Below, one piece after another: positions 5,447-52,400 of a DNA stretch of 64,000 nucleotides. The DNA is from Geosiphon pyriformis uo1 (Eukaryota > Fungi > Glomeromycota). Under the pieces are notes generated by a model. That model did no database searches, was not told the origin of the DNA, and saw only the letters and a program-made list of their open reading frames with translations. The translations under genes were made by a program, and so were the position numbers. Position 1 is the stretch's first letter. The number at the start of each line of letters is the position of its first letter. The stretch spans positions 256,224 to 320,223 of the forward strand of contig JAAOMT010000201.1 of assembly GCA_016748015.1 (NCBI GenBank), in the 5' to 3' direction.

Positions 5447-6984
5447 GCAAGAGTTCAATTAGAACTAACCATTTTTATCTCTATATTTTGTCCAGAAAAG
5501 AAATTTTATAAAAAAAAATTAAATATACTTCTCAAGCAGGATGTAAAAAAAAAGAGAGGAGAAAGAAAAAGGAGTGAAAAACTTGGATAGAAGACAAAAA
5601 CAATTATATACAATATACTTGGTCTTCAAGCTAGAAAAAATTAAAAAATCTTTAGCTTATGGGACTGAACTCTTCAAAACAGAGGAGTAAACACCAGACA
5701 ACACTCAAGAGTAAAAAAAAAGACTCCTTTCAACATATTGGTTTTACAAAATTGGGAAACAATTAGATTTAAAAAACCCATACAAAGACTACAACCAGAA
5801 AACTTTTAATAAAAAAGCAATATAACAAGTAAAAAAATTCGTAAAAAGAAGCAACCTGACACTATACTACAAAGCAATATGTTAATTATATGTCACTTTC
5901 CAATATTGTCCAAACATACTATTAAAAAAGACAACAGTCAACAACATAGGACAAATGACCAATCAACAGTTCAAAAATCTACAAAAAACTATAGTTAATA
6001 TAACCATTGAACATTACACAAACAAAGTTCTATTAACAGACACAACTGATTTTGCAAAAGCTCAATATTAAAAAAGAAGAAGATAATATTACTTGAAAAA
6101 AAAAAGCTTATTAAAAAAAGAAAGAAAAATGTGACCTAAAAAAAAATATAATAAAATATAAAAGAACACAGAATAATACACAATAATATTAGATAACACG
6201 TTATAACATAGAATAATGTGTTATAATACAGGATAATACAGAATAACATGTTATAATGTAGAATAATGTGTTATAATATAGAATAATTAGTTATAATATA
6301 AAAAAACAAAGTAATAACTAACAAGAACAAATGATCTAAAGCAATCCTGTAAAATTAGAAAATATGTATATATAGCAGTAGCATTAGAAACAGAAAAGAC
6401 AGAATTCCCAGACAAAAATTTATTAGTTACTATTCCCTAGTTAAAAACCATATTATTTTAAATATTAATAAATATATTATTCAGCATTTCAAATCCAATT
6501 GCTTATTATCAACTCTAAATGTTAATAGTAATTGATACTTAAATTACATGAGAACAATAGCTCTTGATTATAGCTATTAATAGGATACTAATTTGCATTG
6601 CCTTGGCTTAATTTTTTTTATTTTATCTTCTTTTATTTTTTTGTATCTTGTTGGTGGTTTACTAAACTTCTTAAAAATTAAGTATTAAGTTATTAATGTC
6701 AAGAATTGTCTGGTAAAAGACTCCTGCAAGTGGATAGAATGTGTAAAAATTAAGGATTGCTTACCAAAGAATTGCTGACCATCAAGCTGAGAAAAAAATT
6801 GATGGAATTGTGATTCCAGAAAGCTACAAATAAAATAACATGGAAATCTCTGTTCATTATACAAAAGATTCAATCAAAACCTTCAAAATGCAAAAATCTT
6901 CAGATTACTACCATTTCATATTAATTAAGCACCAAGTTATGGGTTTGTTATTTACTCTAACTATCCAAATAATCACTTGTAACA
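5447..6984 (+). mobile_element. Gypsy 3' end: ORF3 remnant (5447-6070), PPT (~6070-6086), 3' LTR 6087-6984
   Basis: ORF3 remnant matches 32280-32875; purine tract AAAAAAGAAGAAGATAA precedes LTR; LTR ends TGTAACA at 6984. Confidence 0.8.
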
Positions 6985-8190
6985 ATACTAAAAATGCAAA
7001 GAAAAAATCAAAGATTTTTCAAAAGTTTTTTGTTATGCATGTTAAGTAATATCTCTGGAATCCGATTTTTTTGTTCAAAAAAATACAATTAAAAAATTAA
7101 TTGAAAGTATAAGACATAAATACATTTTTTTTCAAAATTTTATTGTGAATTAAATTTTATTAAAAGATATTGTTACAGTTGAAACTTATACTTTTTATTA
7201 ATTATTACATGTATTAACTATTGATGTTATATAAATTAGCTATTTTATTTTTAGATAGTGATCATTGACCTAATTAATGACTTAACCATTAATCTGATTA
7301 TTGATCTAATTATTGACCTGATCAATGACCTGATTATTGATCTAATCATTGATCTGATCATTGACCTAGTTGTTGATCTGATTATTAACCACTTTTGACA
7401 ACTATATAAGTGATGAATCTCTTAGCTATAGAAAAGCATGTTCAAAATAATCAAGAATAAATAAAATAACAACTTTTATCTTAATCATTCTCTTATTGCT
7501 AATTTTTCTTTCCTTACCTTTAAGTATCCGAATATCTTGGGATAAAAGATTACTTGTTGGTTAATTTTTACTCTTTTTCTGAAATGTATAAGTGTAGCAT
7601 TTGAAGATTATTAAATAAATTGTGACTGAAGAGCACATCTAATATTTAATATTGAATTCTAAGAACACTGATATAAAGCATAGAATTATACCAAATGTGA
7701 TTATTTATTGACAGTACAAATTATTTCTTTATTTTCAGATTCCTTAGTTACCTTTTGAAAAGAATAGCAACTGAGATATTTTATGAAACTGATCTCGCAC
7801 ATTGAATTCATACTTATTCAATTCGCTCTTTAAAGTTGAATTTCCCTTGATTATTTCCATCACCCTATAATTCTGTTTTTTTTTGCTATCCGTTAACTTG
7901 TTATTCTAACTCATAACAATATTAGGGAGCTGCTAAAAGATATACATATAATAAATACAAGTATTTATGAAAAAGATTACAAAAAACAGTGTTTAAAAGT
8001 CTTAAATTAGTATTTTTAATAACTATTAGACAATTTTCAAGAAAATATTGGTGTTATATAAATCTTTATAGAAAAAGTTTTAATAGAAAATTAGTAGAAT
8101 ATACTATAAAAAAGTATAAATCTTATAGAAAAATTTCAAATAATATTTTTAAAGAATTAGACAAATTAAATAATATTCAAAGTTTGTAAT
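6985..8190 (+). pseudogene. Decayed C-terminal part of IS630-Tc1-mariner-type (DDE) transposase, split by solo LTR
   Basis: Joined across 7171-7918 it reads ..DFFVQK..LIESIRHKYIFFSKFYCELNFIKRY*GAAKRY..IRQFSRKYW.YI.LYR..YTIKKYKSYR, resembling the PKFHCELNxIExxWGxAK motif of fungal Tc1-like transposases. Confidence 0.6.
7171..7918. repeat. Solo LTR (family D, 748 bp) with ATAT target-site duplication
   Basis: TGTTAC...ATAACA ends, ATAT on both sides, empty site visible in the inverted paralogue at ~17213-17230; 12-bp TGATCATTGACC-like tandem array at ~7255-7390. Confidence 0.85.
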
Positions 8191-8616
8191 ACTGTATTTG
8201 GTTTTATATTATATAAAATTTAATAAAATTTTATTTTTTATTATAAATAATATATTAAAAACAGATGTATATTAGCCAATAAAATTTAATTATATAAATA
8301 AAAACACGTGAAGATCATCATTTAAAATTTCGGACTGATCTACATTTTTGATGATTATAAATGGTTTGCACCATAGTAATAAAATCATGGTAAATACCTA
8401 AATCTACTGCAGGGTAATTCCCATACTTAAATGAGCCCAGAAATGAGCAGTATATTTACGTTTTGATTGTTTACCTGCGATTTCATTTTCTCATGTAGTA
8501 ACAATACTTTTTTACACTTAACCGAGCACCTATCAGCATGACACATTTAGTATCTAAGATTGAAGCACTTTTATTAGAAGAGCCATTAGACAGTCTTTGT
8601 GGTGCGTCCGCAGTTT

Positions 8617-8636
8617 NNNNNNNNNNNNNNNNNNNN
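8617..8636. other. Assembly gap (20 N)
   Basis: Run of N. Confidence 1.
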
Positions 8637-8970
8637 CGGAAGAGCGATATCCTCTGGATGTCGAGAGTTTGCTCCTCCTTAACTGTGCGTGACTATCTGC
8701 CAAAACAGTGATATTTTTAAATTCTGAAAACGCACATGTGCGGGCGTAGTATATAAACAGATATAATGTGAGGTTGGCTTGTACCGGTACTAATTTATTA
8801 TTGCATTTGCCATAGATTTCAAGTGGTTATATCAGCATTAAAGGTCTGAAAGCATTCAAAGCATTGAATATAGAGAGGAAGTTACCCCCTGATTATAGCC
8901 ATGAAGAGATTGTGGCGAATATTAATATGTTAAAATACAAGCTCGAGGTATGTCTCAGATATTTTATCAA
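8637..8970 (+). repeat. Left arm of ~334-bp inverted repeat (partner 16642-16975); partial copy of the 5' exons of the gene at 15482-16984
   Basis: Reverse complement of 16642-16975 with about 4 substitutions seen by eye. Confidence 0.95.
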
Positions 8971-9791
8971 GATTCGTGGCCAGATTTTAGAATAATTCTC
9001 TTTGGGCTGAATCAGATAATCCTCTAGCTTATGAAATCCATTTTTTATGGAAGAGATAGCAGGTCTTTTTATACGTCCTTCTTTTGCTGATCCAAGGAGC
9101 CGAAGATTGAAATGCGTTTTGGGAAGGCCAACATCAATGAACTTTGAATAAGGATTAGTTCCATAACCTTTTCTGTGAATCCCTTAAGTTCTCTATAATC
9201 TATGAATTGGGCACGAGGATAAATAATATGCCAACTACATTTCTCAGCATTTGATGAACTAGCTAAAGCAAAAGAATTTAAGAAAGGCATACAATCTGGA
9301 ATAAGGCTTAATGCATCCGCACAAGCGACTAAAATTCGAGATAACAAATCTTCTCGTGTAATTTTTTTATCGTTTAAGGAAGGCACTTTAGGATTTGTAG
9401 GATCAGGCTTTTGCCTTGCATCAATATCAATAATCAAACGAAGAGGCTGGTTACCATCAATACATTCGTGAGTATCAGGTATTCTATAAACTTCAGAGGG
9501 ATGATTAACCAATGCAAACTTTTCTTTTATTCGAATTATATACTGAGAATAAATCTCTTCGGGCTGGTATGCATCTAAAAGTGCAGTATCATTTCTATCA
9601 GAAGAGCTGGTATGGCCATTGGATGCAAGCCAGTATTTATAATATGTATGCTCTTTATGGCCAGGTTTATCAAGATCCGTTAAACCCATAAAAAACCTTT
9701 TTGCTTCATTATATTCGGCCGACTTTTGATTTAAGCAGTGTTGTTGTAATGATTCATGAAGACATTTTTTTGCTTCACTAGACAAACTCAT
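8971..9791 (-). pseudogene. Archaeo-eukaryotic primase (PrimPol-like) domain, frameshifted and 3'-truncated
   Basis: Motif I LRLIIDID, motif II KCSWHII; after a frameshift near 9155 the other frame gives motif III PYSKFIDVGLPKTHFNLRLLGSAKEGR; cut off by the inverted-repeat arm at 8970. Confidence 0.8.
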
Positions 9792-9952
9792 TTTATTGAT
9801 TTCTATATATGTGTTGTTTGTATATGCGTGTTTGATCTGACAAAAAGTATGTATTACGTTGATTTATCAACTTATAATAAAAGCGACATAAAAAGTTTAA
9901 TTCGAAAATAATTATTTCATATATGCAAATTTGAAAGTTATTGTTATTAGTA

Positions 9953-10237
9953 ATGGCATTCTATTCTTGCCCACATACTTATATTGATGGGCGAATTTGT
10001 GGAAAAGGTAGTTATCGACAAGAGGGTTGTCCTCTTCATTGGAAAATGCGATTACGTAATCCTTGTAAAGAGTGTGGTATACCAACTGCCTCTATATATT
10101 GTATGTGTGTTAAACATGCTGGAAAATATCGCAACAAATCAAACTATCACAAAAAAAAGCAGGCTGAATTACGTGCAAAAATTGTTATGCTTGAGAATCA
10201 TATACCTGACTTACTCGATTCTAGACATGAAGTATAA
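9953..10237 (+). CDS. Small Cys/His-rich putative zinc-binding protein (94 aa)
   Basis: C-x9-C-x9-C-x2-H and C-x2-C...C-x2-H patterns, basic coiled tail; intronless, ATG at 9953. Confidence 0.65.
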   Translation: MAFYSCPHTYIDGRICGKGSYRQEGCPLHWKMRLRNPCKECGIPTASIYCMCVKHAGKYRNKSNYHKKKQAELRAKIVMLENHIPDLLDSRHEV

Positions 10238-10554
10238 TCATATATTGATTATTTTTTCCAGGACCTCTTATTTTGGAAAATGGCACTTATGTGCCTAAGT
10301 AATGTTATATCCTCTTTGATGCCTTCTATATTTTTGGTAATTTTATTAGGTAAAGCTATAGATTCCACGACTTTTGATTGAATTCGTATCTTGTTCGTGC
10401 CCATTTTCTGACAGAATTATAATAACCGCCACCCATTCAATTTTTTAGGTATTCTGACCCTAGATAATTAATTTCGATTTGAAAAAAGAATCTCCATAGT
10501 ATATATCAGACGAAAATAGTCTATATAAAACATCTCAATTAACATATACTAATC

Positions 10555-11655
10555 ATGGCAAAAATTGCTACATCATTTGTAAATCGCTATCATTTAACTT
10601 CACAAACTAGTTTACCACAGCTTAGTACTTATGTTGAAGAGTTAGCTAGTAAACTCTCAGATGGTAAGACAAAAGAGCAAGCTCGAAAAGCCAGAGATCA
10701 GGCCAAAAGACGCTTCCAACAGTTAGGATTGAGTAAGGAGCAAGCAGATACTCTTATTCCTATTCAAGCTCCTGGGAGACACGTTGAGGAAAGAGATCCT
10801 ATCAAAATTATCGCCCAATATATTATAAAAAATAATCTCTCACCTGAAGAGATAAATGGAATAGCATATGACTTGGCTTCTTCTGCTCCCACTGTTGCGG
10901 GAAATTCTCGTCTTAATTTATTACGGAAAAAGTTGTGTAGCTTAGGAGCTGACTATCTCATTACCGAGGCAACGAAAATACCTTTTATTACTGAAGAAGC
11001 AAATCAGATTCAAGCAAGAAAACGTATACTTCGTGGAATTAATGGTTATGATTGTCCCAAGTTCTTTTACCTGGAAAAAGTTCAGGAAAGACTTAATGAA
11101 TGTGATATTACCAAGCCTCCTTCAATGCAAAATCTAATAGACATAATGGTAATGCTATGTATGCGATCGGCAGATGTGGAAACTCTTCGTATCAATCGAT
11201 ACAGACCAAGTCGTGAGTCATGGTATAATCCTGACTATTCTTTGTATTGCACCGGTTATGCGAAAAATAAAGGTGAAGTAGGAGAACCCCGACCATTCCT
11301 CTCAATGGAAAAAAACCCAATACGAGCAAGAGAATTGCTTATCTGGATTCAGAAATCAATACCAGATAAATTTCCCTTCTTGTTAAAAGATAAGGATAGA
11401 AATACCAATGTTGTACCACTTAATCTATTCTTGAGTCGTCATAGAATTACCTCATATATGTTAAGAAAAATAGGTGCTGATCATGCTTCCAGAGTACATG
11501 GAGGTAAGAATGATTCTGGCCGTCAATATTTACGACAATTGGCATGTAGGCATAAGATAGGTCATGCTTCATCAGTTGAACATTATGGTGTAATGAATGA
11601 TAGGCCAATTATTTCAGTGCCTAAGCAAGAAAATCTCGAAGTCGAGGATAACTAA
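10555..11655 (+). CDS. Tyrosine recombinase, protelomerase/telomere-resolvase-like (366 aa, intact)
   Basis: Putative catalytic set R204 (MLCMRSAD), K237 (TGYAK), R304 (YMLRK), H333/H337, Y344 (SSVEHY); the GxAK and xxHY contexts resemble protelomerase GQAK and QLHY. Confidence 0.7.
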   Translation: MAKIATSFVNRYHLTSQTSLPQLSTYVEELASKLSDGKTKEQARKARDQAKRRFQQLGLSKEQADTLIPIQAPGRHVEERDPIKIIAQYIIKNNLSPEEINGIAYDLASSAPTVAGNSRLNLLRKKLCSLGADYLITEATKIPFITEEANQIQARKRILRGINGYDCPKFFYLEKVQERLNECDITKPPSMQNLIDIMVMLCMRSADVETLRINRYRPSRESWYNPDYSLYCTGYAKNKGEVGEPRPFLSMEKNPIRARELLIWIQKSIPDKFPFLLKDKDRNTNVVPLNLFLSRHRITSYMLRKIGADHASRVHGGKNDSGRQYLRQLACRHKIGHASSVEHYGVMNDRPIISVPKQENLEVEDN

Positions 11656-12062
11656 TCACTCTATCACTTTTATCATATTCACAGTAAAATCTTTATCATC
11701 ATTGGATGATTCAGACTCAGACCCAGATGAAGATGAGGACCAGATGCGGTATCATTTAAAATTTTCTTTTTTCTTTTAGCCTTAGATGGTGTACAATTTC
11801 TTCGAGAAATATCGAGGTTTACTATCGCATTTATAATATCTTGCTGAATCTTGGGTTTTACTATCTCCAGTAATCGGTGAAGAGAGATCCAGATTTTTTT
11901 ACCCGCCACTTGCTTAATAATACTGGATACCACCCTATAATTATTCTGAGATTCGTGGCTATTTCCAATAATTTCCACTCCCAATTTTTTAGCAAATTCT
12001 TCGGTTATAGTTGACCAGTTAGTGCTTGAATCGATAGTAGGTTTAGTTGTTGTTGATGACAT
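11656..12062 (-). CDS. Hypothetical protein, probable frameshift near 11740
   Basis: ATG 12062; basic KAKRKKK stretch; alternative frame ends SSSSGSESESSNDDKDF..* at 11656, tail-to-tail with the recombinase stop. Confidence 0.5.
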
Positions 12063-12203
12063 AATATTATTTATTAATACGAATAAAAATACATTATTAA
12101 ATATAAAATTATAATAAAGCATCACGATGAGAATTTTATCTTGCGAAATTAACAAAGTACCAGTTAAAACTATATTAGATACGTCTGAAATAGCAAATAT
12201 ATA

Positions 12204-12671
12204 ATGAGTTATAGCAGAGTACGAGATAGGTTAAGTGAATATGGTGTAAATTATATTGTTAATAATATTAAAACATCAGAAGCATGGTTACAGTTTGCAA
12301 AATATTATCCACCAAAGTATGTACGCAAGCGTTTATTAAAACTAGGATATGAAATAGATAATAGAGATTATTGGGAAAATTTTGTATTTCGTATCAAAAA
12401 TAATTTAACCAGCCACAAGCAAATAGGTAATGACCCTAAATATAGGGATTTTAAAGTTCAACTAGCATTATATAAAAAAAATTGTGCGTCATTAATTATC
12501 CAGAAGACATATCGTTTATGGAAAAAACAAATTAATTCAGCTAAAATAATCCAACATGCAGTAATTGAATGGCTTTATAGACCTGGTGGATCATTTATGA
12601 AGCAAGCCAAAGATCGATATTATCAAAATTCGAATAAGCTCCATCATAATAGCATTGGGAGTAAACAATAA
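12204..12671 (+). CDS. Hypothetical protein with two IQ-like motifs
   Basis: ASLIIQKTYRLWK and SAKIIQHAVIEW followed by LYRPGG; intronless 155 aa. Confidence 0.65.
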   Translation: MSYSRVRDRLSEYGVNYIVNNIKTSEAWLQFAKYYPPKYVRKRLLKLGYEIDNRDYWENFVFRIKNNLTSHKQIGNDPKYRDFKVQLALYKKNCASLIIQKTYRLWKKQINSAKIIQHAVIEWLYRPGGSFMKQAKDRYYQNSNKLHHNSIGSKQ

Positions 12672-12887
12672 CGAAATATACCTTAAGGAACACTTCCTCT
12701 ATGGATTGTTTCGTGATAATCAGTTAAAAGCCAGAAGATGTGGAACAGACCTGTCATTAGATGAGCTGGTTGCAAAGTTAAGCGTGATTGAGAATATCAG
12801 AAAAATAAATGATATATGCGTCTAAATTAATTATCCGAACATTAGCTGTTTTTTTCGATTAAAGATATATAATATACATTTTTGAGA

Positions 12888-13700
12888 ATGGCGCAACTAT
12901 TGCGGAGCAATGACCCAAAGGGTCTAAATATTTTTGATTTACCAGAATTGCTAGAACAGATCTTATATTATTTAAAAATTGATCGATCCCTCTATCCCAC
13001 TTTGTTTGTCAACCACTTTTGGTATCACTGCGGTGCTCCTATTCTATGGCATCGCGTTGAGTTTATTAACAAAGATTATCAGCAGAGTCGACGTCCCTTA
13101 AATTTGTCTCGGGTTCTTACTCGACGATTGATAAACTTTGAAAAAATTATATGTAGAAAAATAAAGCCACTCTATTGTTCAAAGATGGTATATCTCAGAT
13201 TAGAAGGTTTAAAAATCTCAGATGCATTGATCAGTGCAATTTTGCATTTATGTCCGAATATATGCTTTCTCATTCTTGATAAAATTGCGAGATTTTCTCT
13301 GAAACTACAGCATCTGAGTCTTAATTCATGTATATGTCTCACTAATCGTTGCATCACTGAAATTGTTCGCTCATGCCTAAAACTTAGACATCTTGAGCTT
13401 GGTGATTGTTTGATTAGTAATAAAGCTGTCGAAGAAATAGCCCACAACTGTACTAATTTGAAATATCTTAGTTTGGAGGGATGTAAAGGGATTAACAAAG
13501 AAGTAATAAAAAAATTCAATCCAAAAATTAAAATCGAATATCCTGATTATTCAGATGATTTACATACTCTATTTCCCACTGGCATAATAATTGGAACGAA
13601 TTTTATTCCTGCATTTAGAAATTATATAGAGATTAGCAGAATTAATCCTAATCATTCATCGTGGATCACAAATAATTTTATTTATAATATACATCATTAA
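12888..13700 (+). CDS. F-box / cysteine-containing LRR protein
   Basis: F-box-like LPELLEQILYYL..LFVNHFW..GAPILW; LRRs LQHLSLNSC, LRHLELGDC, LKYLSLEGC. Confidence 0.85.
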   Translation: MAQLLRSNDPKGLNIFDLPELLEQILYYLKIDRSLYPTLFVNHFWYHCGAPILWHRVEFINKDYQQSRRPLNLSRVLTRRLINFEKIICRKIKPLYCSKMVYLRLEGLKISDALISAILHLCPNICFLILDKIARFSLKLQHLSLNSCICLTNRCITEIVRSCLKLRHLELGDCLISNKAVEEIAHNCTNLKYLSLEGCKGINKEVIKKFNPKIKIEYPDYSDDLHTLFPTGIIIGTNFIPAFRNYIEISRINPNHSSWITNNFIYNIHH

Positions 13701-13789
13701 ATAATATTACAGGATGCATATTATTTTGACTATAGAAGAATAGAGGAGGTAATCAGGTATTCGACAGCCTCCAGCTAATTTTAAAGAAT

Positions 13790-14464
13790 TTATTTGCTGT
13801 GATGTATATATATCTGTGATAATTTTCCTTGTTTTACTTTTGATTCTAGACATGGGCACTGATTGTTGCTAGTAGATTTTTTGACGAAAATTTCATGCAA
13901 TTGTTGAAGAGTGACATTCGGAAACAATGGTAGTCCCTCACCAGTAAACCAAAATTTCTTTACCCCTCTATCAACGAATTTTTTTATTAGCATACCTGGA
14001 TCATCTTCTAAGGGACCGTGGAATTTCTCAAACTTTCGGAGGTACACCCTTGCATGTTTATTGGCTTCTTCTGCCATTTCTTGATTAGTATAGCCAACAA
14101 TACCGATTTTTTCCTGAATTGTCGCTATATCGTCTTCTAAGCATAAAAGCAAATCAAATAATCTAATTGGTTTATCTGAAGAGACTTTATCCCTTCTAAG
14201 TTCTGCTTCTAAAACGGGATTGATATCTATACCAAGTTTCCCCTGTATAGGTATTAAATCCCCCACCAATTCTAACAACAATTCATATGAATCAGCATGT
14301 TTTTTCGCTTTCTTGCTTTCCGACACTGCCGTTTGATTTATATTACTGTTAATAACAAGTTTTTTCTGAATAGCTGTTATATCCTTTTTCTTATATAAAA
14401 ACACTTCGTATAATTGAAGAAAATTTTCACTTGGATCAGTTTTATTATTAGTATTACTCGTCAT
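13790..14464 (-). CDS. Hypothetical protein (224 aa)
   Basis: Open ATG-initiated intronless ORF with repeated DI(T/A)xIQxKL/IG helical motif. Confidence 0.6.
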   Translation of the reverse strand: MTSNTNNKTDPSENFLQLYEVFLYKKKDITAIQKKLVINSNINQTAVSESKKAKKHADSYELLLELVGDLIPIQGKLGIDINPVLEAELRRDKVSSDKPIRLFDLLLCLEDDIATIQEKIGIVGYTNQEMAEEANKHARVYLRKFEKFHGPLEDDPGMLIKKFVDRGVKKFWFTGEGLPLFPNVTLQQLHEIFVKKSTSNNQCPCLESKVKQGKLSQIYIHHSK

Positions 14465-14804
14465 GATTGTTATAATATGGTAATATAATTAATGCGGAAA
14501 ATAACGCATAAATATAAAAATTAAGTGAATATAGCAAATTCAATCTGAAAATAATTATAACCACATCGTAACTGCGAAATTACATCACGTTATAATGAGC
14601 CTCAGGGGAGCGATGTCATGTGTTTTAAATCCGCGAATCAGAGATCAGCATAGAAGTTCATGGAACATGCCAATAAAAAGCCCCTAATGGGTCATAATCT
14701 CATATATTTACACGAAAATCTTTATTTAACAAGTGATTATCTGATATATTTACATTTTAAAACCGCTAACTCTATATAATTATTTTTGCTATATAAGTAT
14801 CGAA

Positions 14805-15478
14805 TTATATCCCATAGGGTAGTGGATCCTCTGCTTTCAACCCACGTCTGGCACGCGATAAATCTGTAAAGAGTAACGATTATAAATAGCGATTTTTTAG
14901 CAATACATATAATACAATGAAAAGATTAACACGAACGTACTAGCCCATGTGAAATAATTACTTACCAATATTTCCTCGTCTTTTATCGCAAGATCTTTCT
15001 GGTATCTTGGTTTGACTTTTTTTCGGTTGGGAGAGTGTAATTCGGTTATTCAGATCTCGTACATCATTGAGATCTTGCCGAGGAATCGAAGAAAAAACAA
15101 ATCCACGTGAATCCCTCTCAATGCCGGCCTCTAGATCTTCGTATATCGACGAAAAATCGCGCAGATGATGGAAGAAGGTACTGTGAACAAAGTAAACAAT
15201 ACTGTGCCGGATCCCTCGAGTTATGGGAAAATTTCCATGAAGGAGAAGACGTGAGGAGAAAGCAACGATTTGTCGGGGCGAAGCGGAACGACAATCTGGA
15301 GTTGGGGGAACCATAATTCGCCTCCCTCGAAATCACCCAATGCGACTGAACAACAAAGAGAATTTGGCTCGTCATGTTCATCCCAATGAAAGTCACTTAT
15401 TGTATTGAAGTTAATCGCGATCATAGGGAAGACTCCGAATGACCTTGGCGCAAATGCTCCCCATTCTAGCTTTAGCAA
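14805..15478 (-). pseudogene. TET/JBP-like 2OG-Fe(II) dioxygenase, 5'-truncated and frameshifted
   Basis: HxD (FHWD), GDFEGGELWFPQL, then after a frameshift near 15274 H (LLHGN) and RxS (RHS); GT-AG intron 14965-14864 restores the last exon DLSRARRGLKAEDPLPYGI*. Confidence 0.7.
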
Positions 15479-15481
15479 TTT

Positions 15482-16984
15482 TTAAAATGGAGATGAAACA
15501 GTAGGACTCGGGTGTATATTTCGGGGTGGATGAGTATTAGCTTGTTCTAATGCCTGTATTAGTAAGCTATTATTAACGATCATGACGTTTCTTAAGGTCA
15601 ATAGTAAGCGAACGAGAGCTTTAGTATTCGATGCGTGTGGTGATAATGGAATTTCAGCGTTATCAAGATGGAAATATCTTGGTATACCACCCAGATCCTT
15701 CATAAGAACATTTAATCGCATAGTAGTGCCAGCTATTTGTATTCCAACAATCCCAAATTGATTGCCAACCGGTCTACACAGCGCATCCACAAAGCTCACT
15801 CCATCTAAAGTCTCTCTCCACAATTTCACATCATCATCCGTTTTCTTTGAATTACTACATAAAATACGTGAAGATTCAACATATAATAATTCTAAAAATT
15901 TGTCACCCCATTTCAACAGTCCCATAATGTCAGGTTTCTTTCCCATTCGTTCTCTGACTGCTCCTGCATTTCGTTGAGCCTTACTTGCTAGGCTCTGTCG
16001 TTCTGCTGTACTTAAACAGATACTACCATTATGTAGGTCCCCTAAACTCGATCGGAGCAAAGGCAGTATAATATCCGAAATATATGTTCCTTCACTTTGC
16101 TCACTACGTGATATACTCATGAATACTGGGTTACTCCATGTTTCACCACTAATGAAAAGTAAATTAGAAATATTAAAAAAATTTGCACTTCATAGACTGT
16201 ATAGCACTCTAATACTAACTGCTGAAGAATCAAAATAATACTTACAGTACACCAAGAATTCGTTCACTAGTTTCCACCAACTTATGTTCGCTTTCTTTCC
16301 ATTTTTTGTTATGAAAAATATTTCTCGTGGCTTGTGAAGTATTCGAGTTATTAAACCTACCCACAAATTCATCACACATCCTTGTAACCGATTCAGGGAT
16401 ATCGCATTTCATATTCTCCCGCGGTTCCAAAAAAACTTTCTTTTGCCTGCGCCCCAAATTTTTTATTAGGCCCGAATCGTCGGTAAGAATCATATTCGCT
16501 TTGGGATCTTGCCACGTAAGTTCTGACGGATTTATATGTTCGAGAGCTTGCCTAAGCGCTCCGTAAAGATTCGCATCAATTTCTGATCCGGGATGCTTAA
16601 TATACAAGTTCATTAACTTTCGGACAAAAGAATACCTCACTTTGATAAAATATCTGAGACATACCTCGAGCTTGTATTTTAACATTTTAATATTCGCCAC
16701 AATCTCTTCATGGCTATAATCAGGGGGTAACTCCCTCTCTATATTCAACGCTTTGAATGCTTTCAGACCTTTAATGCTGATATAACCACTTGAAATCTAT
16801 GGCAAATGCAATAATAAATTAGTACCGGTACAAGCCAACCTCACATTATATCTGTTTATATACTACGCCCGCACATGTGCGTTTTCAGAATTTAAAAATA
16901 TCACTGTTTTGGCAGATAGTCACGCACAGTCAAGGAGGAGCAAACTCTCGACATCCAGAGGATATCGCTCTTCCGAGCTGGCAT
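15482..16984 (-). CDS. Spliced gene (~400 aa) with C-terminal PD-(D/E)xK restriction-endonuclease-like domain
   Basis: Predicted exons 16984-16928, 16796-16665, 16595-16246, 16148-15482 join in frame with GTGCGT/GTATGT/GTAAGT donors and AG acceptors; motif KKPD..ELLYVESS..DDVKLWR. Confidence 0.65.
16642..16975 (-). repeat. Right arm of ~334-bp inverted repeat (partner 8637-8970)
   Basis: Direct reverse-complement match. Confidence 0.95.
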
Positions 16985-16994
16985 TCCCCAACCT

Positions 16995-17013
16995 CTGTCT
17001 CTTATACACATCT
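16995..17013 (+). other. Nextera/Tn5 mosaic-end adapter sequence (assembly contaminant)
   Basis: Exact 19-mer CTGTCTCTTATACACATCT at an abrupt composition boundary. Confidence 0.97.
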
Positions 17014-18178
17014 ATGAGATTTATATTTTTTTATAGTATATTTTACTAATTTTCTATTAAAACCTTTTCTATAAAGATTCATATAACACCAATATTTTCT
17101 TGAAAATTGTCTAATAGTTATTAAAAATACTAATTTAAGACTTTTAAACACTGTTCTTTGTAATTTTTTTCATAAATAATTTTATTTATTATATGTATAT
17201 CTTTTAGTAACTCCCTAATATCTTTTAATAAAATTTAATTTACAATAAAATTTTGAAAAAAAATGTATTTATGTCTTATACTTTCAATTAATTTTTTAAT
17301 TGTATTTTTTTGAGTAAAAAAATCAGATTCCAAAGATATTACTTAACATACATAACAAAAAACTTTTGAAAAATTTTTGATTTTTTTTTTGCATTTTTAG
17401 CATTGTTACAGATGATTATTTGGGTAGTTAGAGTAAATAACAAAGCCATAACTTGGTGCTTAATTAATATGAAATAATAATAATCTGAAAGTTTTTGCAT
17501 TTTGAAGATTTTAATTAAGTTCTTTGTATAATGGACAGAGATTTCCATGTTATTTTATCTGTAGCTTTCTGAAATTACAATTCCATCAATTTTTTTTTCA
17601 GCTTGGTGGCCAGCAATTCTCTGATAAGCAATTCTTAATTTTTACACATTCTATCACTTGCAGGAGTCTTTTATCAGGCAATCCTTGATATTAATAACTC
17701 AGCACTTAATTTTTAAGAAATTTAGTAAACCACCAACAAGATACAAAAAAATAAAAAAAGATAAAATAAAGAAAATTAAGCCAAGACAATACAAATTAAT
17801 ATTCTATTAATTGTTATAATTAAAAGCTATTGTTCTCATGTGGTTTAAGTATTAATTACTATCAACATTTAAAGTTAATAGTGAGCAATTGGATTTGAGA
17901 TGCTAAATAATATATTTATTAATATTTGAAATAATATGATTTCTAACTAGAGAATAGTAATTAATAAATTTTTGTCTAAGAATTCTGTCTTTTTTGCTTC
18001 TAATGCTATTGCTATATATATATATTTTCTAGTTTTACAAAATTGCTTTGAATTGTCTGTTCTTGCTAATTATTGCTTTGTTTTCTTACATTATAACTAA
18101 TTATTCTATATTATAATACATTATCCTATATTATAATATATTATTCTATATTATTCTGCATTATAATACATTATTCTA

Positions 18179-40300: not shown

Positions 40301-43300
40301 TATATAGTATTGTAGTTGTTGGTATTTTTGGATATTTATCTTTTGTTATATTTTTAGGTTGAAATGTTTTTAAATTTGCCTCATTCGCAACAATCTATCA
40401 GCATTTCCATTGTCTTTTCTTTTTTTATAATGTACTGTATAATTGAATGGTGAAAGTTCTATTTTCTATCTGGTATGGCGATCATTTGCAAATTCTTGTT
40501 TTTGGATTAATGTTAATCCTTTGTGATCAGTATATACATCAAACTTTTGGTTCAAGTATTCTCTCCACTTAATAACAGCCCAATAGATAGCTAAGTGTTC
40601 TAATGCTGGAGTTCCATAGTTCTTCTCAGCTGGACTTAAGCTTTTACTGGCATAAGCTACTGGATGCTCTCTTCCATCTGGCCTTTTTTGTGATAGTACT
40701 GCTCCCAATACTTGACCTGATGCATCCGTGGTGATTATAAATAGTTTGCTATAGTCTGGATACATCAGTACTAGAGCTTGGATAAGCTTTCTTCTTAATG
40801 TGTCAAATGCTTTTTGTTGAGCTTCTGTCCATTCATACTTCACATTCTTGGTTTGTAGTTGGTAAAGTGATTGAGCCAGTTTTAAAAAGTCTTTGATAAA
40901 ACAACAATAGTAGCCTGCAAATCCCAAGAATGCTCTTAGTTCCATGAGATTGTTTGATACTGGAAAGTTCTTGACAACTTCAATTTTGTCTGGATTTGTT
41001 TTGATGCTATCTTTGCTCACAACATGTCCCAAAAATTTTAGTTCTATCTTTCCAAAGAAACACTTAGTTGCATTTAGTTTCAATCTGGCTCTTTTAAGTC
41101 TTTCAAATACTTGCTGGAGGTAGTGCAGATGATCATCAAATGTTTTTGAAAACACATTTGTGTCATCTAGATAGACAACTACTGATTTCCATAGTAATTC
41201 AGTATAGATGATTTCCATAAGTTGTTGGAATGTCACTGGAGTGTTTATCAAGCCAAATGGCATGACTTCAAATTCAAAATTCCCTTCTCTTGTTGTGAAT
41301 ACAGTCTTTTTTTTGTCGGCTGAGTTCATGGCTACTTGCCAGTAACCACTATCTAAATCTAGTGTTGAGAACCATTTATTTCCTCCAAAAGCATCAAATA
41401 GTTCTTGGATCTTTAGAGTTGGGTAGCTGTCTCCTTTGGTTACTTCATTCAATTTCCAGTAATCTACACAAAAGTGGATTTTTCCATTCTTCTTCTGGAC
41501 TAGTACCACTGGTGACAACCATGAACTCATTAATGACTGAATTAGCCCATTGTCAAGCATCTGATTGATTTTTTAACAAATGATCTCATGGCTAACTGGT
41601 GGTACTCTGTATGCTCTTTGCTTAATTGGCATTGCATCTACAGTCTTGATCTAATGCTGGATAATGTTGATGCAGTCAAATTTATTTTTGCTTGCAAAGA
41701 TGTTATTGAAATTGCTGAATAATATCTTTAGTTGTATTTGTTGAAGTGGATCTAGATTTCTCATGTTGATCTGTTCCAATTGTTTTAATTGGAGCAGATA
41801 ACATTCACTTTGTCTGTATATAGTCTGTGATATGATGTTTACATATCCACAAAGTTGTGGAAAGTCTGGAATGTGGTTTAGTGGTTGATCCTCAACTTTG
41901 GTGGTTAAATATTTAATGATAGTTCCCTTTAGTATCTCGATGACATTTCTTATTGTGTTGTAGATGGGAATTTTGATATTTTTGGAACTTTTGGCTAATA
42001 TATAGAGATTAGTGAGTTCAATCTCTCCTGATTTGCAAATGGCGGCTTCTACTTCAAACAACTGAGCTTGATTCTTTACTTCTCTTTTTATGGCTAACAT
42101 ATACTGGTCATATGGTGAAATGAAAATTGATTAACAGGTTGAGATAATTTCTCCTTTGTTAGTAATTTCTTCTTTTGCTATATTAACTGGTATATTTATT
42201 CTACCCATTGATCCAAATCTCTGTATCCCTCTAGCTGTAATTCCTAATTCTTTCCTGTTTCTCACTGACATTAGCTGAGTTACTTTCACCAAAGGTAGGA
42301 ATATTGCTTGTGCTATCTTTTCATTTGAATCTATGGTATATGTTTTTTCTAAGTTATTTTGTAGTATAGCAATGATATTTCCTATGTATCCTGCATCAAT
42401 TATTTCTCCTTTGATGTTGATTTCTTTTTTTGCTAAACTACTTCTGGATGCTAATTGAACCATTGTTGTTGCTGGAATTTCCAGTGCTATTTTCAGGTCA
42501 ATGCAAATGCACAAATGTGGTTCTAATTTGAGGAGATCTTTTTCTGGATATCTTAGATCAAATCCTGCATCAGTATCGTGTGCGCGTACTGACATGATAT
42601 CTTCACCATTATTGCTGAATCATTTAAGTTCTTGTTCCTTGATGAGGTTGGGAAGTGCAATAAATGTTTCAGAGTCTGAATCGAAGTTTGAATTGTTGTA
42701 ATTTTTGTTGCTAATTGGAGCAGAGCTAGAACCATTGTTTTCGTCATCATCATTGTTAAAGTTTGAATCGGAATTGAGAATCAATTCTGATTTAGATGTG
42801 CAGCTGCTAATTGGTTCTTCTTCTGAGATTGTGTATATCATGTGGATTGAGGGGTTGTAAATAAGATCAGACTCATTACAATATTGAAAGTCACATGGGA
42901 TTAAACAGTGGTCACAAAGTTGAGTGTTTAATTGTGCTAAACATTCTTTTTGTTCCTCCCTTATGGGTGTTAAGTTTTGATAATGCTTATGGAAATCTTC
43001 TGGGCTGTTTTCTAAGTTAAGGAAAACATCTGAGTTGAGAACCAAAACGATGTCTGTTGGTTCTGGAGAGTTGTTTTTGATCTTCAGAATTTCACTAAGT
43101 AAAGCACCTTCTACTTTGGCATTGGCTATTCACCAGATTTCATTCTTGTCATGTGGATAACCTTCTAAGCGAGAAATCACTCAGTGCCTGACTACTATAA
43201 GAGGTGTTTCATGACTCACCCAGTTGCTAATGAGTATGGTATATTGGCATGAAGTGTCACATGTTCCTCCTTGACCAGGAATGTCATTCCACATTCCTTC

Positions 43301-48028: not shown

Positions 48029-49411
48029 TCAATTTAATGTGTTGTTATCAATAATAATGATTGGTTCCAGATCTTGTGGAATTTTATCTGGTTGGACTAG
48101 TATTCTCTGTATTCCTAATTGTGGAATATTACTGGTAGATGGTAATGTGATGTTGTGATATGGTTTCAGTCGATCTCCATGTGCTGCTTTGGTTAAAATT
48201 TTGTTATTCAATCTTAATTTGTAAGCTCCATTTCTTAGAATTTCTTTTATGTGAAATGGTTCGTCCCATTTGGGATCAAATTTTCCACTCCATTGTTTTT
48301 CTGCTTTGGTACGATGTAGTAATACTTTGTCTTTAATCTTGAATTCAACTGGTTTGTCTGGTAGTTGACTATCATGTCTTTCTTTCTGTGTTTCTTGTGA
48401 CTTTTGGATATTATCAACTGCTCTTCTTCATTTGTTTTCCAATGTTTTTATTAAGTCATATGTTTTTTTCAGCAATGTTTCTTGAAAATTTTCTTATGTT
48501 ATTGGTTCAGCTGGATATGTATTAATTTCTCTCTCTACTGGTAATATTGCTATTCTCCCATATACTAATTCAAATGGTGTTGTTTGTGTAGTATCCTGTT
48601 TCGTTGTCCGATAAGCAAATAGTACTGATGGTATGAACAAATCCCAATTGTTTTGGTTTTTTTGGCTGAGCTTGGCTATTGCTTTACACAACATTCTGTT
48701 GAATCTTTCTACCAATCCGTTGGTTTGTGGATGGTATGGTGATGATAATGGTCTTTTGATTCCAAATCTTTGGCTTAATTCAGTTAATGTTTTGTTCACA
48801 AAATGAGTTCCTTGGTCTGACAATAATTCTTTTGGACATCCATGTCGACAAATCAACTCCTGATAAACGAATTTGGCAATGGATTCTGCATCCGCTCTTT
48901 GAATTGCTTTTGCCTCTGGCCATTTAGTAAGATAGTCCATAGCTACTGCTATGTATCTGTTTCCTCTGCTGGTGATTGTTAATGGTCTGACTAAATTAAT
49001 TCCCATATGGTCAAATGGTTGTTCTACTTTGATTGGTTTTAATGGTTCACTGAGTCTCATTCCTCCTCTTTGCTGACAAGCATCACAATTTTGAACATAT
49101 TGAATGATGTCTGGATACATTGATGGCCAATAGTATCTTTTTCTAGTTCTTTCCATGGTTGCTTCTTTGTGAAAATGTCCTGCTGTTGGATTTGAGTGCA
49201 TGTTGAATAATATTGTTTTTTTTTCTGGCTCTGTAATTACTCTGGTTGGTTGATCTGGATCTCTTCTATTTTTCTGATAAAGTATATTTTAGTGAGTGAT
49301 AAAATATTTTGATTGTTGTTTGATACTCTTTTATTCCATATGAAATAAATTCTCCTTGAACTGTTGAGTATTTAGATAATGTTGTAATTGTTAATATTTT
49401 TGTATGTTCAT
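48029..49411 (-). pseudogene. Integrase
   Basis: ORF 48494-49201 with H..GH..CDACQ, SDQG, YHPQTNGLVER; own ATG at 49411. Confidence 0.9.
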
Positions 49412-49473: not shown

Positions 49474-52400
49474 TTAGATTTGTCTTATTCGCAATAAACT
49501 ATCAACATTTCCATTGTCTTTTCTCTTTTTGTAATGTATAGTATAATTGTATAGTGCGAGTGCCATTTTCTATCTTGACTGTCTTCCATCTCCAAATTCT
49601 TGTTTTTGGAGTGATGTCAATCCCTTGTGATCTGTGTATACTTCAAATTTCTGGCTTAAGTATTTTTTCCATTTCATAATGGCCCAGTATATTGCTAAGT
49701 GTTTTTGTTCTGGTGTTCCATAGTTCTTTTCGGCTGGTGTTAAATCTCTGCTGGCATATGCTACTGGATGTTTTCTGCTGTCCAGTTTTCTCTGAGATAA
49801 TACTGCTCTCAATGCTTGGCTGGATGCATTAGTGGTAATGATGAATAGTTTGCTGTAATCTGGATAGATCAGTACTGGAGCTTGGATGAGCTTTTTCCTC
49901 AGAATATCAAAAGCTTCTTGTTGACTTTCTGTCCATTCATATTTCGCATTTTTGTTTTGTAGTTGATTGAATGGCTGCGCTATCTTGGAAAAGTTCTTGA
50001 TAAAATGACAATAGTAGCTGGCAAATCCCAAGAATGATTTCAGTTCTGTTATATTGGTCGGTACTGAAAAGTTCTTTACTATCTCTATTTTCTCTGGATC
50101 CATTTTGATGCCATCTTTACTGACTATGTGTTCCAAAAATTTGAGTTCCGTCTTGCCAAAGAAGCACTTTGTCACATTTAACTTCAGTCCTGCTCTTCTT
50201 AGTCTTTCAAACACTTGTTGAAGATAATGAAGATAATCATCAAACGTCTTTGAGAATACATTGGTGTCATCCAAGTATACAACTACTGATTTCCACAATA
50301 AGCCCGTATAAACAATTTCTATTAACCATTGGAAAGTCGCTGGGGCATTGGTTAAACCAAATGGCATTACTTCAAATTCGAAATTCCCTTCTCTAGTAGT
50401 AAATGCCGTCTTTTTTTTGTCAGCTGGATACATGGCTACTTGCCAGTAACCACTGTTCAAATTTAATGTGAAGAACCATTTGTTCCCACCAAAAGCATCG
50501 AATAATTTCTGTATTCGTGAAGTTGGATAACTGTCTCCACAAGTTACACCATTGAGTTTCCTGTAGTCTATACAAAACCGGATTTTTCCATTTTTTTTAC
50601 GGACAAGTACCACTGGTAACAACCATAGACTTATTGATGATTGAATTAGCCCGTTGTCAAGCATTCTGTTTATCTCTTGACGAATAATCTCGTGGCTGGC
50701 TGGCAGTACTCTGTATGCTTTTTGTTTGATTGGCATTGCATCTTCAGTCTTGATCTGATGCTGGATAATGTCAGTTCGGCCAAACTCATTTTCACTGGCA
50801 AAGATGTTATTGAACTTGTTGAGTAATATCTTGAGCTGCATACATTGGAGTGGATCTAAGTTTCCCATGTTTATTTGTTCCAATTGTTCTGGTTGGAGCA
50901 AATAACATTTGTCTCGTCCATAGATTGTTTGTGATGTGATGTCAACATATTCACAAAGTTGTGGAAAGTCTGGAATAGGGTTTAGTGGTTGGTCTTCTAT
51001 TTCTGTGATTAAATATCCAATGGTCGTTCCTTCTGGTATGGTGATGACATTGCCAGTATTGTTGTAGATGGGAATTTTTATGCTGCTATAGCCTTTGGCT
51101 GGTATGTGGAGATTGATCAACCCAATCTCTCCTGATTCACAAAGGGTTGTTTCCGCTTCAAACATCTGTTCTTGCTTCTTTTCTTTCCTTTCTATTGCTA
51201 ACATGTACTGGCTATATGGTGGAATGGAAATAGCTTGACCAGTTGAGATAATTTCTCCTTGGCCAACAATTTTTTCCTCTGCCATGTTAACTGGTACATC
51301 TATTCTACCTGTGAATCCGAATCTCTGTATTTCTCTCGCCATGATTCTTAATTCCTTCCTCTTTTTCACTGATACTAACTGAGCTATTCTAACCAGAAGC
51401 AGGAATATTGCCTGTGCTATCTTTTCATTGGACTTTATTACATAGGCTTTTTCTGAGTCATTTTGTAGCATAGCGATGATATTTTTTACATATCCCACGT
51501 CAATTATTTCTCCTCTTATATTAATCCCTCTTTTCGCTAAACTACTTCTAGATGCTAATTGAATCATAGTTGTTGCCAGAATTTCTAGTACTACTTTCAG
51601 ATCAATGCAGGTGTGTAAATGTGGTTCCAATTTGATGGCATTTTTTCCTGGATATCTTAGATCAAACCCTGCATCAGTATCATGCACACATTCTGGCATA
51701 ATACCTTCCCCATTGTCACTATACCATTTCAACTCTTGTTCTTTGGAGAGATCTAATAGTGCAATGTATTGTTCATAGTTTACCTTGGAGTTTGTATCTG
51801 AGTTGGAATCATTGTCATTGTCATTGCCATTTTGAATGGAGTTTGAACCATTGTTGTCACCATCATTGTCAGAGTTTGAATTGTGATTGATTGGTGATCC
51901 TGATTCTGATGCGCAGCTGCTGATTGGTTCTTCCTCTTCCAGAATCGTATAAATCATGTGTGGTGGTGGATTGTAAATGAGGTCACACTCATCACAATAC
52001 TGGAAGTCACAGGGAATTAGGCAGTGTTGACATAGTCAAGCATTCAACTGCTCTAATTGTTGTTCTTGTTCTTCCCTTGTGGATGCTAATTCTTGGTAGT
52101 ATTCGTGGAATTGTTCCGGATCCAGGAGGTTTATGATGGGTTCTGCATCTCAGTCAAGCTTTAAAGGTTCTGGGGGGTTGTCTTTGATTGTTTTTATCTC
52201 TTTTAGTGTTGCTTCTTCAATTTTTGCAAGTGCCATTCGCCAAATTTCATTGTTGTCAAGTGGGCAACTGTCCAGTCGTTGTATGGCTCTTCTTCAGGCT
52301 GCTTTTATTGGGGTTTCTTTCTTTATCCAGTCACTTATTAGAATTGTGTATTGACACGATACATCACACATTCCTCTTCGTCCAGTAATGTCATGCCACA

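Follow-up and report, generated by a model that had tools for sequence, protein, structure and literature searches.

Replicons that depend on a protelomerase have been described in bacteria and their phages, and a few large algal viruses carry unproven protelomerase genes. The replicons include N15, PY54 and phiKO2, linear phage-plasmids of the N15 type, to which Vibrio phage VP882 also belongs. With these systems we compared a CpG-rich island of Geosiphon pyriformis uo1, found in a window of 64,000 nucleotides (nt), the whole stretch of DNA analyzed, on contig JAAOMT010000201.1; all island coordinates are window positions. The island is a broken copy, likely chromosomal, of a mobile element whose family is widespread in mycorrhizal fungi, and its core genes are an intact one for a recombinase with the predicted fold of a telomere resolvase, hereafter the resolvase, and the remnant of one for a primase-helicase. 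The element is predicted to work like an N15-type replicon without being a member of that group. In VP882 a RepA-type SF2 helicase gene lies about 1 kb from the annotated protelomerase gene, and in relatives of the island (all four long loci and two genomes) helicase and resolvase genes are likewise linked, although the helicase is truncated in the window copy. RepA is homologous to the element's helicase (hhalign probability 94) and is its only phage match among 50,697 records (two records, one phage). Where the N15 type has a bacterial host and tailed-phage and partition genes, the element has a eukaryotic host, a putative AEP primase at the N-terminus of its helicase, fungal-type cargo with introns and many chromosomal copies; no tail, capsid or partition gene was seen, and the 10 open reading frames (ORFs) of the island gave no tailed-phage or partition match in PHROG or Pfam.

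Other described systems share some traits with the element and lack others. The Crypton, a fungal transposon whose only core gene is an integrase-type recombinase, differs in that the element has a linked primase-helicase, a resolvase-type fold and no integrase Pfam match in 51 resolvase family members. TelA of Agrobacterium, ResT of Borrelia and TelK of phiKO2 resemble the resolvase in predicted fold, TelA best and over both domains, and in their R, K, R, H and Y residues, the spacing being ResT-like, but identity is 8-10% and the resolvase has no match to their family, PF16684. The full-length primase-helicase relative P0108 appears to have the domain order and size of giant-virus AEP and UL9 helicases, a layout described for mimivirus R8, African swine fever virus pF1055L and the SF2_hel of Yaraviridae (PMC11253617), whereas the element's gene sits in a small module of fungal genomes with a resolvase and no other giant-virus core gene adjoining. 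The putative protelomerases of phaeoviruses (EsV-1 and FirrV-1) and the ResT/TelK-domain protein of EhV-86 share the resolvase fold and are among the nearest matches, but they belong to large capsid-encoding algal viruses, and their activity is putative (PMC2373305). The end module of polinton-like viruses has the same pairing of a primase-helicase with a tyrosine recombinase and inverted repeats, but its helicases are D5-like (PMC11296320) while that of the element is a UL9-type SF2 helicase; in the island, moreover, no capsid module was found, the inverted repeat is a gene duplication, and the replication gene is not the pPolB or D5/SF3 primase-helicase of polinton-like viruses and Mavericks. 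The part of PMC11296320 on which we draw mentions neither UL9 nor protelomerases and describes D5-type primase-helicase homologues as abundant in Rhizophagus irregularis.

The resolvase and its linked primase-helicase

The ORF at 10555-11655 is predicted to have a telomere-resolvase fold, so that the protelomerase-like recombinase of the first-pass annotation, which had been made from the letters alone, is borne out by predicted structure and language-model features. When an AlphaFold2 model built from 51 sequences (pLDDT 75, pTM 0.50) was structurally aligned with 48,161 chains, the top four were all protelomerases: TelA 4dwp (Z 10.5, root-mean-square deviation [rmsd] 5.6, 255 aligned), TelA 4f43 (Z 10.2, rmsd 5.6, 253 aligned), TelK 2v6e (Z 9.4, rmsd 11.4, 227 aligned) and ResT 8vs5 (Z 8.6, rmsd 4.2, 137 aligned). 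Integrase-type chains stayed at Z 6.1 or less. Among the named clusters of the ESM Atlas, ResT and the FirrV-1-B51 family of phaeoviruses, which both belong to PF16684, come nearest with a score of 0.96, against 0.93 for an integrase cluster. Across 51 homologues, R204 is conserved in 46, K237 in 49, R304 in 46, H/Q333 in 40 and Y344 in 40, most exceptions being gaps, and the integrase HxxR histidine (position 301) occurs in none. The ratio of nonsynonymous to synonymous substitutions (dN/dS) is 0.25-0.31 relative to seven metagenome loci, and the catalytic residues are, as far as sequence comparison tells, under purifying selection. The spacing of 11 between H333 and Y344 is that of H324 and Y335 in ResT, and Y301 aligns with ResT Y293 and TelA Y363, an additional tyrosine described as unique to those two enzymes (PMC11317167); most homologues carry K, F, S or N at position 301, and only the window copy has Y there.

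Single-sequence Pfam and PHROG scans of the 10 ORFs identified neither core gene. Profiles made from the resolvase alignments had no significant match among PDB sequences, and tblastn of a divergent resolvase against phages found nothing. In IMG/VR the resolvase profile, the helicase profile and three single resolvases brought up no relative, and two scans of GTDB genomes no resolvase relative, in scans that depend on short exact patterns and miss distant relatives.

The primase remnant is 86% identical, over two frames, to residues 1-296 of P0108, a protein of 1,142 amino acids (aa) from Gigaspora margarita. It is indeed broken, as the first pass had seen: relative to metagenome locus L012 a 7-nt deletion shifts the frame near 9153, and the gene is cut off at 8971. 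Its N-terminal part shows what we take to be the DxD and SxH motifs of such primases and matches weakly, at profile level, a D5-type N-terminal domain of poxviruses (E 0.006). Of 49 longer relatives, 26 contain PF02399, the SF2 helicase family of the herpesvirus origin-binding protein UL9; full-length relatives reach E 6e-23, and their profile matches UL9 of herpes simplex virus with E 1e-12. The helicase expected with the primase is therefore of the UL9 type and not of the D5 type first proposed, and the statement that the island lacks a helicase gives way to the finding that one belongs to the element as the lost C-terminal part of the primase gene. The helicase also matches the CyRepA1 plasmid Rep proteins, with E 2e-39, which falls below the cut-off, and four plasmid records. 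The model of the full-length protein is poor (pLDDT 48, and below 50 in the N-terminal part), and its fold search serves as a lead only, with giant-virus AEP-UL9 helicases foremost and a PrimPol/helicase among the Foldseek matches. Some resolvase homologues bear the public label 'highly derived d5-like helicase-primase', which we rejected, P0071 and P0084 having no Pfam helicase match, and a few are called 'Tyr recombinase domain-containing' in UniRef.

Linkage was assessed in 41 metagenome contigs bearing the resolvase, each shorter than 5 kb. In the four with more than 1 kb of upstream sequence, the primase-helicase is its neighbor every time, the other 37 being too short; the two genes lie head to head, as in the window, in L001 and L012 and in tandem in L005 and L035. 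Gigaspora rosea has the pair under adjacent accessions (RIB24713/RIB24714), and in R. irregularis OCT59_001159 and OCT59_001162 stand three locus tags apart on an 8-Mb contig, so that the co-occurring recombinase and primase loci, for which the first-pass annotation advised a search, have been found in both soil contigs and other glomeromycete genomes. Of 107 resolvase homologues, all those matched to a named species fall within 11 glomeromycete genera. Relatives of the whole island are apparent in two further runs, X9 (another organism) and X4 (a rhizosphere metagenome), with depth in 29 of 30 island bins and about 92-97% identity in the listed pieces. In X9 the resolvase contig has a depth of 258, compared to 19-26 for the spliced gene of the island, which suggests that the core is probably present in more copies than some of the cargo.

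A quick tree of 61 resolvases divides into several subfamilies, every one of which draws on more than one host genus, and the clade of the window resolvase includes sequences from Paraglomus, Diversispora and Gigaspora. On sequence grounds this mixture would fit old paralogy or transfer; as the tree is a quick one without a monophyly test, we do not claim horizontal transfer. Divergent homologues lie outside the fungal clade (P0271, P0279, P0312, P0342, P0346, P0349 and P0357), most with the full catalytic set. In another subfamily, P0232 is an intact resolvase of 380 aa in a cluster of 40, most of them on metagenome contigs 1.5-15 kb long, and some of these contigs might be complete elements. 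Intact reading frames go weakly with higher CpG observed/expected ratios (median 0.88 in 12 loci versus 0.74 in 29; one-sided p 0.044, Spearman p 0.11), a comparison open to frameshifts in the metagenome assemblies.

State and setting of the Geosiphon copy

Near-identical inverted repeats of about 334 bp had been reported to mark the ends of the element. The repeats are real (8637-8970 and 16642-16975, 334 nt with 4 mismatches), but they arise from the duplication of part of a gene, by which the primase is truncated. Each contains a 132-nt exon common to both copies of a spliced gene, together with sequence upstream and 23 nt of the next intron, and the left inner edge coincides exactly with the point where the primase gene is cut; the primase match to L012 ends at 8969, where X9 contigs go on with primase sequence. 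We infer from this coincidence that an inverted duplication replaced the rest of the primase gene. Because of their exon and intron content, the cut primase and outer edges formed by a gap of Ns and an adapter, the repeats are probably not a pair of termini, and since both outer edges are breaks the duplication may exceed 334 nt. The true element ends fall in assembly breaks, and the repeat is gene sequence, probably unlike the terminal inverted repeats with target-site duplication of polinton-like viruses or Mavericks. Replacement of one arm by the other is a known event in linear replicons; arm replacement and chromosomal rearrangement would give the same appearance.

Sequencing runs were available as assembled contigs without raw reads, X1 being the best DNA run and possibly the source sample, and a hole in their coverage, such as that of X1 at 8427-8723 or of X23 across nearly the whole island, was counted as no evidence. 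Contigs of X2 and X3, two runs from two studies, were treated as RNA because they skip GT-AG introns and one has a poly(A) end. They uphold the earlier report of two intron-containing genes, skipping introns at 8948-9053 and 16149-16245. On the left, RNA-like contigs start at 8458 and 8475, and the transcript joins 8458-8616 to 8816-8945, skips its intron and is polyadenylated at 9311; the reading frame stops one codon past the intron. On the right, spliced contigs cover the minus-strand gene at 15048-16595, and the frame is open across both introns. Its product matches nothing in Pfam or NCBIfam, and its C-terminal motifs have what we take to be a likeness to a putative PD-(D/E)xK nuclease. 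The left transcript runs antisense into the primase remnant. Over the resolvase, an X2 contig stops at the boundary of the intron at 10991-11070, whose GT-AG reads only on the minus strand. Both core genes are accordingly overlapped by spliced antisense transcripts, and such transcription could be a route of silencing.

The contrast in base composition noted in the first pass is pronounced: the CpG observed/expected ratio is 0.92 for the island and 0.19 for the left flank, and none of 78 overlapping island-sized blocks of 8.36 kb in the right flank exceeds 0.37 (median 0.23). Both repeats do end at assembly breaks, as had been stated, namely a run of 20 Ns at 8617-8636 and an adapter match at 16995-17013. 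The latter, which we take to be the Tn5/Nextera mosaic end, begins 19 bases beyond the right outer edge of the repeat. Such a remnant inside the scaffold means that the join between island and right flank is an assembly artefact and not real sequence; an X1 contig continues 241 nt past 16994. To the left, the island extends beyond the gap to about 8377, judging by the CpG ratio (0.77 at 8301-8617) and the transcript from 8458, and a high-copy host repeat stops directly beside it, at 8376-8380, in loose contig ends.

Four exact X1 contigs span most of 8941-16671 at a depth of 78-90, compared to 87 for the single-copy benchmark, one exact flank contig of 150 nt, and break at 14641-15047, the site of multi-copy sequence. 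This is roughly single copy and does not fit an amplified episome. No other X1 contig reaches 85% identity on the primase segment 9021-9911, and in that run no close helper primase was seen. Given the single-copy depth, the missing helicase and the lack of a close helper, the island is probably a dead chromosomal copy. The genes listed in the first pass are present, including the intact 366-aa ORF with a recombinase fold, the broken primase, the Cys/His ORF, the LRR ORF and the two unknown ORFs. Its element is real as a family and the protelomerase lead holds; the inverted repeat does not count as evidence for termini, and the window probably contains a dead insert.

A proposed replication cycle and its rivals

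Intact relatives encode a primase and UL9-type SF2 helicase of about 1,100 aa beside a gene for 366-400 aa with the recombinase residues, along with variable cargo. The explanation that we prefer, and to which we give an even chance, is that the island is a transcribed, defective, likely chromosomal copy of an element whose intact members are likely hairpin-ended linear DNA maintained in the manner of N15. The primase-helicase would bind an origin, unwind it and prime synthesis, and a host polymerase, invoked since no polymerase gene was seen, would extend the primers. Replication round the closed ends would give a dimer, and the resolvase would cut the palindromic junctions and reseal them as hairpins, a mechanism modeled on bacterial telomere-resolvase systems (PMC12270096). 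Copies would enter chromosomes by reversed resolution or host repair and would then be methylated and decay. In the window copy, an inverted duplicate of the 5' part of the right-hand gene would have replaced the helicase half, leaving it unable to replicate alone. A bolder proposal, and a somewhat doubtful one, is that mycorrhizal fungi harbor autonomous members as free linear molecules with covalently closed hairpin ends, formed by the element's own protelomerase and copied by its own primase-helicase. Such a eukaryotic counterpart of N15 would spread between fungal genera and seed chromosomes with cargo genes.

A number of observations weigh against hairpin-ended linear DNA, and some of them would suit an integrating, self-replicating transposon, in which a protein of resolvase-like fold acts on circles as integrase and excisionase, and the circle, once excised, is replicated by the primase-helicase. 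PF16684 (ResT-TelK_cat) matches none of the 51 homologues and none of 13 further sequences, for which reason we file the resolvase as protelomerase-like and not as a member of that family, and hhalign gives a probability of 0.1 to its alignment with the VP882 protelomerase. Foldseek against the PDB is led by Cre (E 0.06), followed by TelA (E 0.07, with the best TM-score, 0.39), neither significant, and in BFVD integrases lead together with the resolvase-domain protein of EhV-86. The model is mostly helical, with its pTM of 0.50, and Z scores under about 13 may reflect a common helical arrangement. Telomere resolvases, furthermore, can become Cre-like recombinases by mutation (PMC12270096), so that the fold does not fix the reaction. 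No palindromic target of the telomere type was found in the island, whose ends are both missing, or in the 41 short loci. Neither free nor fold-back DNA was seen in the data, which consist of assembled contigs only; and many named resolvase homologues lie on long chromosomal contigs, many of them as partial or fused gene models. Those chromosomal copies, the Foldseek leaders and the likeness to the polinton-like virus end module (PMC11296320) all speak for a transposon, which we nevertheless consider fairly unlikely: full structural alignment parts protelomerases from integrases, the HxxR histidine is absent throughout the family, and the ESM Atlas ranks PF16684 clusters above the integrase cluster.

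The gene pair could alternatively be the replication or end module of a larger capsid-encoding virus, be it polinton-like, Maverick-related or a giant-virus relic, of which the island would be a fragment. In a low-confidence model, the nearest likeness of the full-length primase-helicase is to the AEP-UL9 helicases of giant viruses; putative protelomerases are encoded by phaeoviruses (PMC2373305), Glomus and Rhizophagus have Maverick-related ATPases (bioRxiv 10.64898/2026.06.19.733378), and the divergent homologues outside the fungal clade would be in keeping with such an origin. We find it improbable because no capsid, ATPase or polymerase match emerged in the 10 island ORFs and none was recognized among recurrent neighbors in the 41 short loci (in a comparison without a capsid-specific hidden Markov model), because the IMG/VR scans gave no relative, and because five R. 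irregularis genomes contain no major capsid gene according to the part of PMC10640383 on which we draw. More improbable still is that the window copy itself exists as a free linear molecule at low copy number, whose long inverted ends came about when one arm took the place of the other, and that it was misscaffolded into host repeats. That both repeat ends lie at assembly breaks, one of them an adapter, and that CpG is undepleted would agree with it, as would a further point against the preferred reading of a chromosomal copy: the contig over the inverted repeat has a depth of 46, about half that of the interior, where two full copies should give at least 85, and 8427-8723 is empty in X1, as expected near closed ends. 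Coverage loss toward closed ends, nuclear heterogeneity or filtering might each produce this low depth. Countering a free molecule are the missing helicase with no close helper, an interior depth equal to that of the exact flank contig and the gapless join of the left part to host repeat, to which leftover depth at 8404-8426, faintly suggestive of a DNA contig, may be added. Finally, chance or misassembly might have combined ordinary genes of expanded host families, or endobacterial contaminants; these fungi do have expanded LRR and nuclease-like families. The recurrence of the gene order in independent contigs and genomes and the four exact DNA contigs covering nearly all of 8941-16671 make this highly improbable, even though unmethylated host genes would keep CpG too (PMC8647823). 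An endobacterial origin was rejected on the eukaryotic GT-AG introns and poly(A) and the GTDB scans, which found no resolvase relative.

We found no description of this family in the full-text literature, a scope outside of which lie supplements (the tables of PMC11296320 and PMC10640383), curated repeat libraries and subscription journals. In genome work on R. irregularis, helicase-primase genes were filtered out as transposon-related, and 24% of the genome is unclassified repeat (PMC8647823). Small elements pairing a resolvase fold with a primase-helicase in at least 11 arbuscular mycorrhizal genera would represent a novel type of mobile DNA in fungi and would explain some of the 'orphan' genes and unclassified repeats of these genomes. 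Free hairpin forms, if they exist, would provide a path for genes to move between fungi that have long been held to be clonal, and possibly a basis for vectors in a group without transformation tools.

Companion and cargo genes and flanking repeats

The remaining genes of the island (Table 1) include a conserved companion, the small Cys/His-rich gene between primase and resolvase. For the degenerate ORF downstream of the resolvase, the family member in L003 has a weak match to Asp_protease_2 (E 2.5e-4, below the cut-off). The ORF at 12204-12671 was first called an IQ protein, for which neither a Pfam match nor an IQ-pattern match was obtained. The gene at 12888-13700, first described as F-box/LRR, keeps the LRR part of that name through matches that lie below Pfam cut-offs (E 0.003-0.02); its start, which we took to be F-box-like, is not detected as such by Pfam. 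An X1 contig joining 11790 directly to 14548 represents a sister copy from which the three cargo genes in between are missing. The multi-copy stretch that follows is a candidate cis-acting region, either an origin or an end region. No Rfam family was found within 8000-17200.

Table 1. Coordinates of features in and around the island (window positions)
Feature	Position	Strand	Basis or remark
Left edge of island: upstream region and first exon (ATG 8538) of truncated left gene copy	8377..8616	+	CpG, repeat end
Spliced polyadenylated transcript of left gene copy	8458..9311	+	X2 and X3 contigs; loose poly(A) end at 9311 (X3)
Assembly gap, 20 N, nominal size only	8617..8636		134 letters in spliced contigs between 8616 and 8816
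Left copy of inverted duplication: upstream exon/intron, exon 8816-8947, start of next intron	8637..8970	+	Cuts primase-helicase gene
Remnant of putative AEP primase and UL9-type SF2 helicase gene	8971..9791	-	First ~296 of ~1,140 residues
Small Cys/His-rich protein, 94 aa, likely zinc-binding	9953..10237	+	Homologues beside resolvase in 7/41 loci
Intact protelomerase-like tyrosine recombinase, 366 aa	10555..11655	+	R204, K237, Y301-x-x-R304, H333, Y344
Intron of spliced antisense transcript across resolvase gene	10991..11070	-	Skipped in one X3 contig
Small degenerate ORF; fuller members resemble retropepsin-type aspartic proteases	11679..12122	-	Family in 6/41 loci
Cargo ORF, 155 aa, no family found	12204..12671	+	DNA relatives in other runs
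Cargo LRR protein, 270 aa	12888..13700	+	Homologues downstream of resolvase in 8/41 loci
Cargo ORF, 224 aa, no named family	13790..14464	-	Homologue in L006; nearest Atlas clusters are unnamed Mucoromycota proteins
Mostly non-coding multi-copy stretch	14548..15077		X1 depth 200-320 versus 78-90 elsewhere in island
Complete right copy of spliced gene, 5' part past break	15482..16994	-	Exons 16665-16796, 16246-16595, 15482-16148
Right copy of inverted duplication, inside spliced gene	16642..16975	-	Sequence comparison
Sequencing-adapter remnant	16995..17013	+	Single exact match, presumed Tn5/Nextera mosaic end

Loci of a second resolvase subfamily have cargo of their own, a coiled-coil-like gene after the resolvase (L005 2427-2921, with counterparts in L004, L006, L011, L016 and L041) that has no Pfam match.

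The surroundings of the island are low-GC, CpG-poor repeats, including ORFs for reverse transcriptase and integrase of the long terminal repeat (LTR) retrotransposon type. An AT-rich, very high-copy repeat at 8130-8376 has a summed X1 depth of about 21,000 and ends sharply at 8376-8380. The flanks at 6209-7171 and 7919-8129 are inverted copies of 17011-18178, 88-95% alike. They belong to a single high-copy repeat family, a possible reason for the way in which the scaffold was joined. Farther to the right, pol ORFs of LTR retrotransposons (40469-41572, 48497-49288 and 49573-52035, on the minus strand) lie in repeated units of roughly 9 kb, and an 821-aa retrotransposon frame carries a dUTPase domain ahead of its reverse transcriptase.

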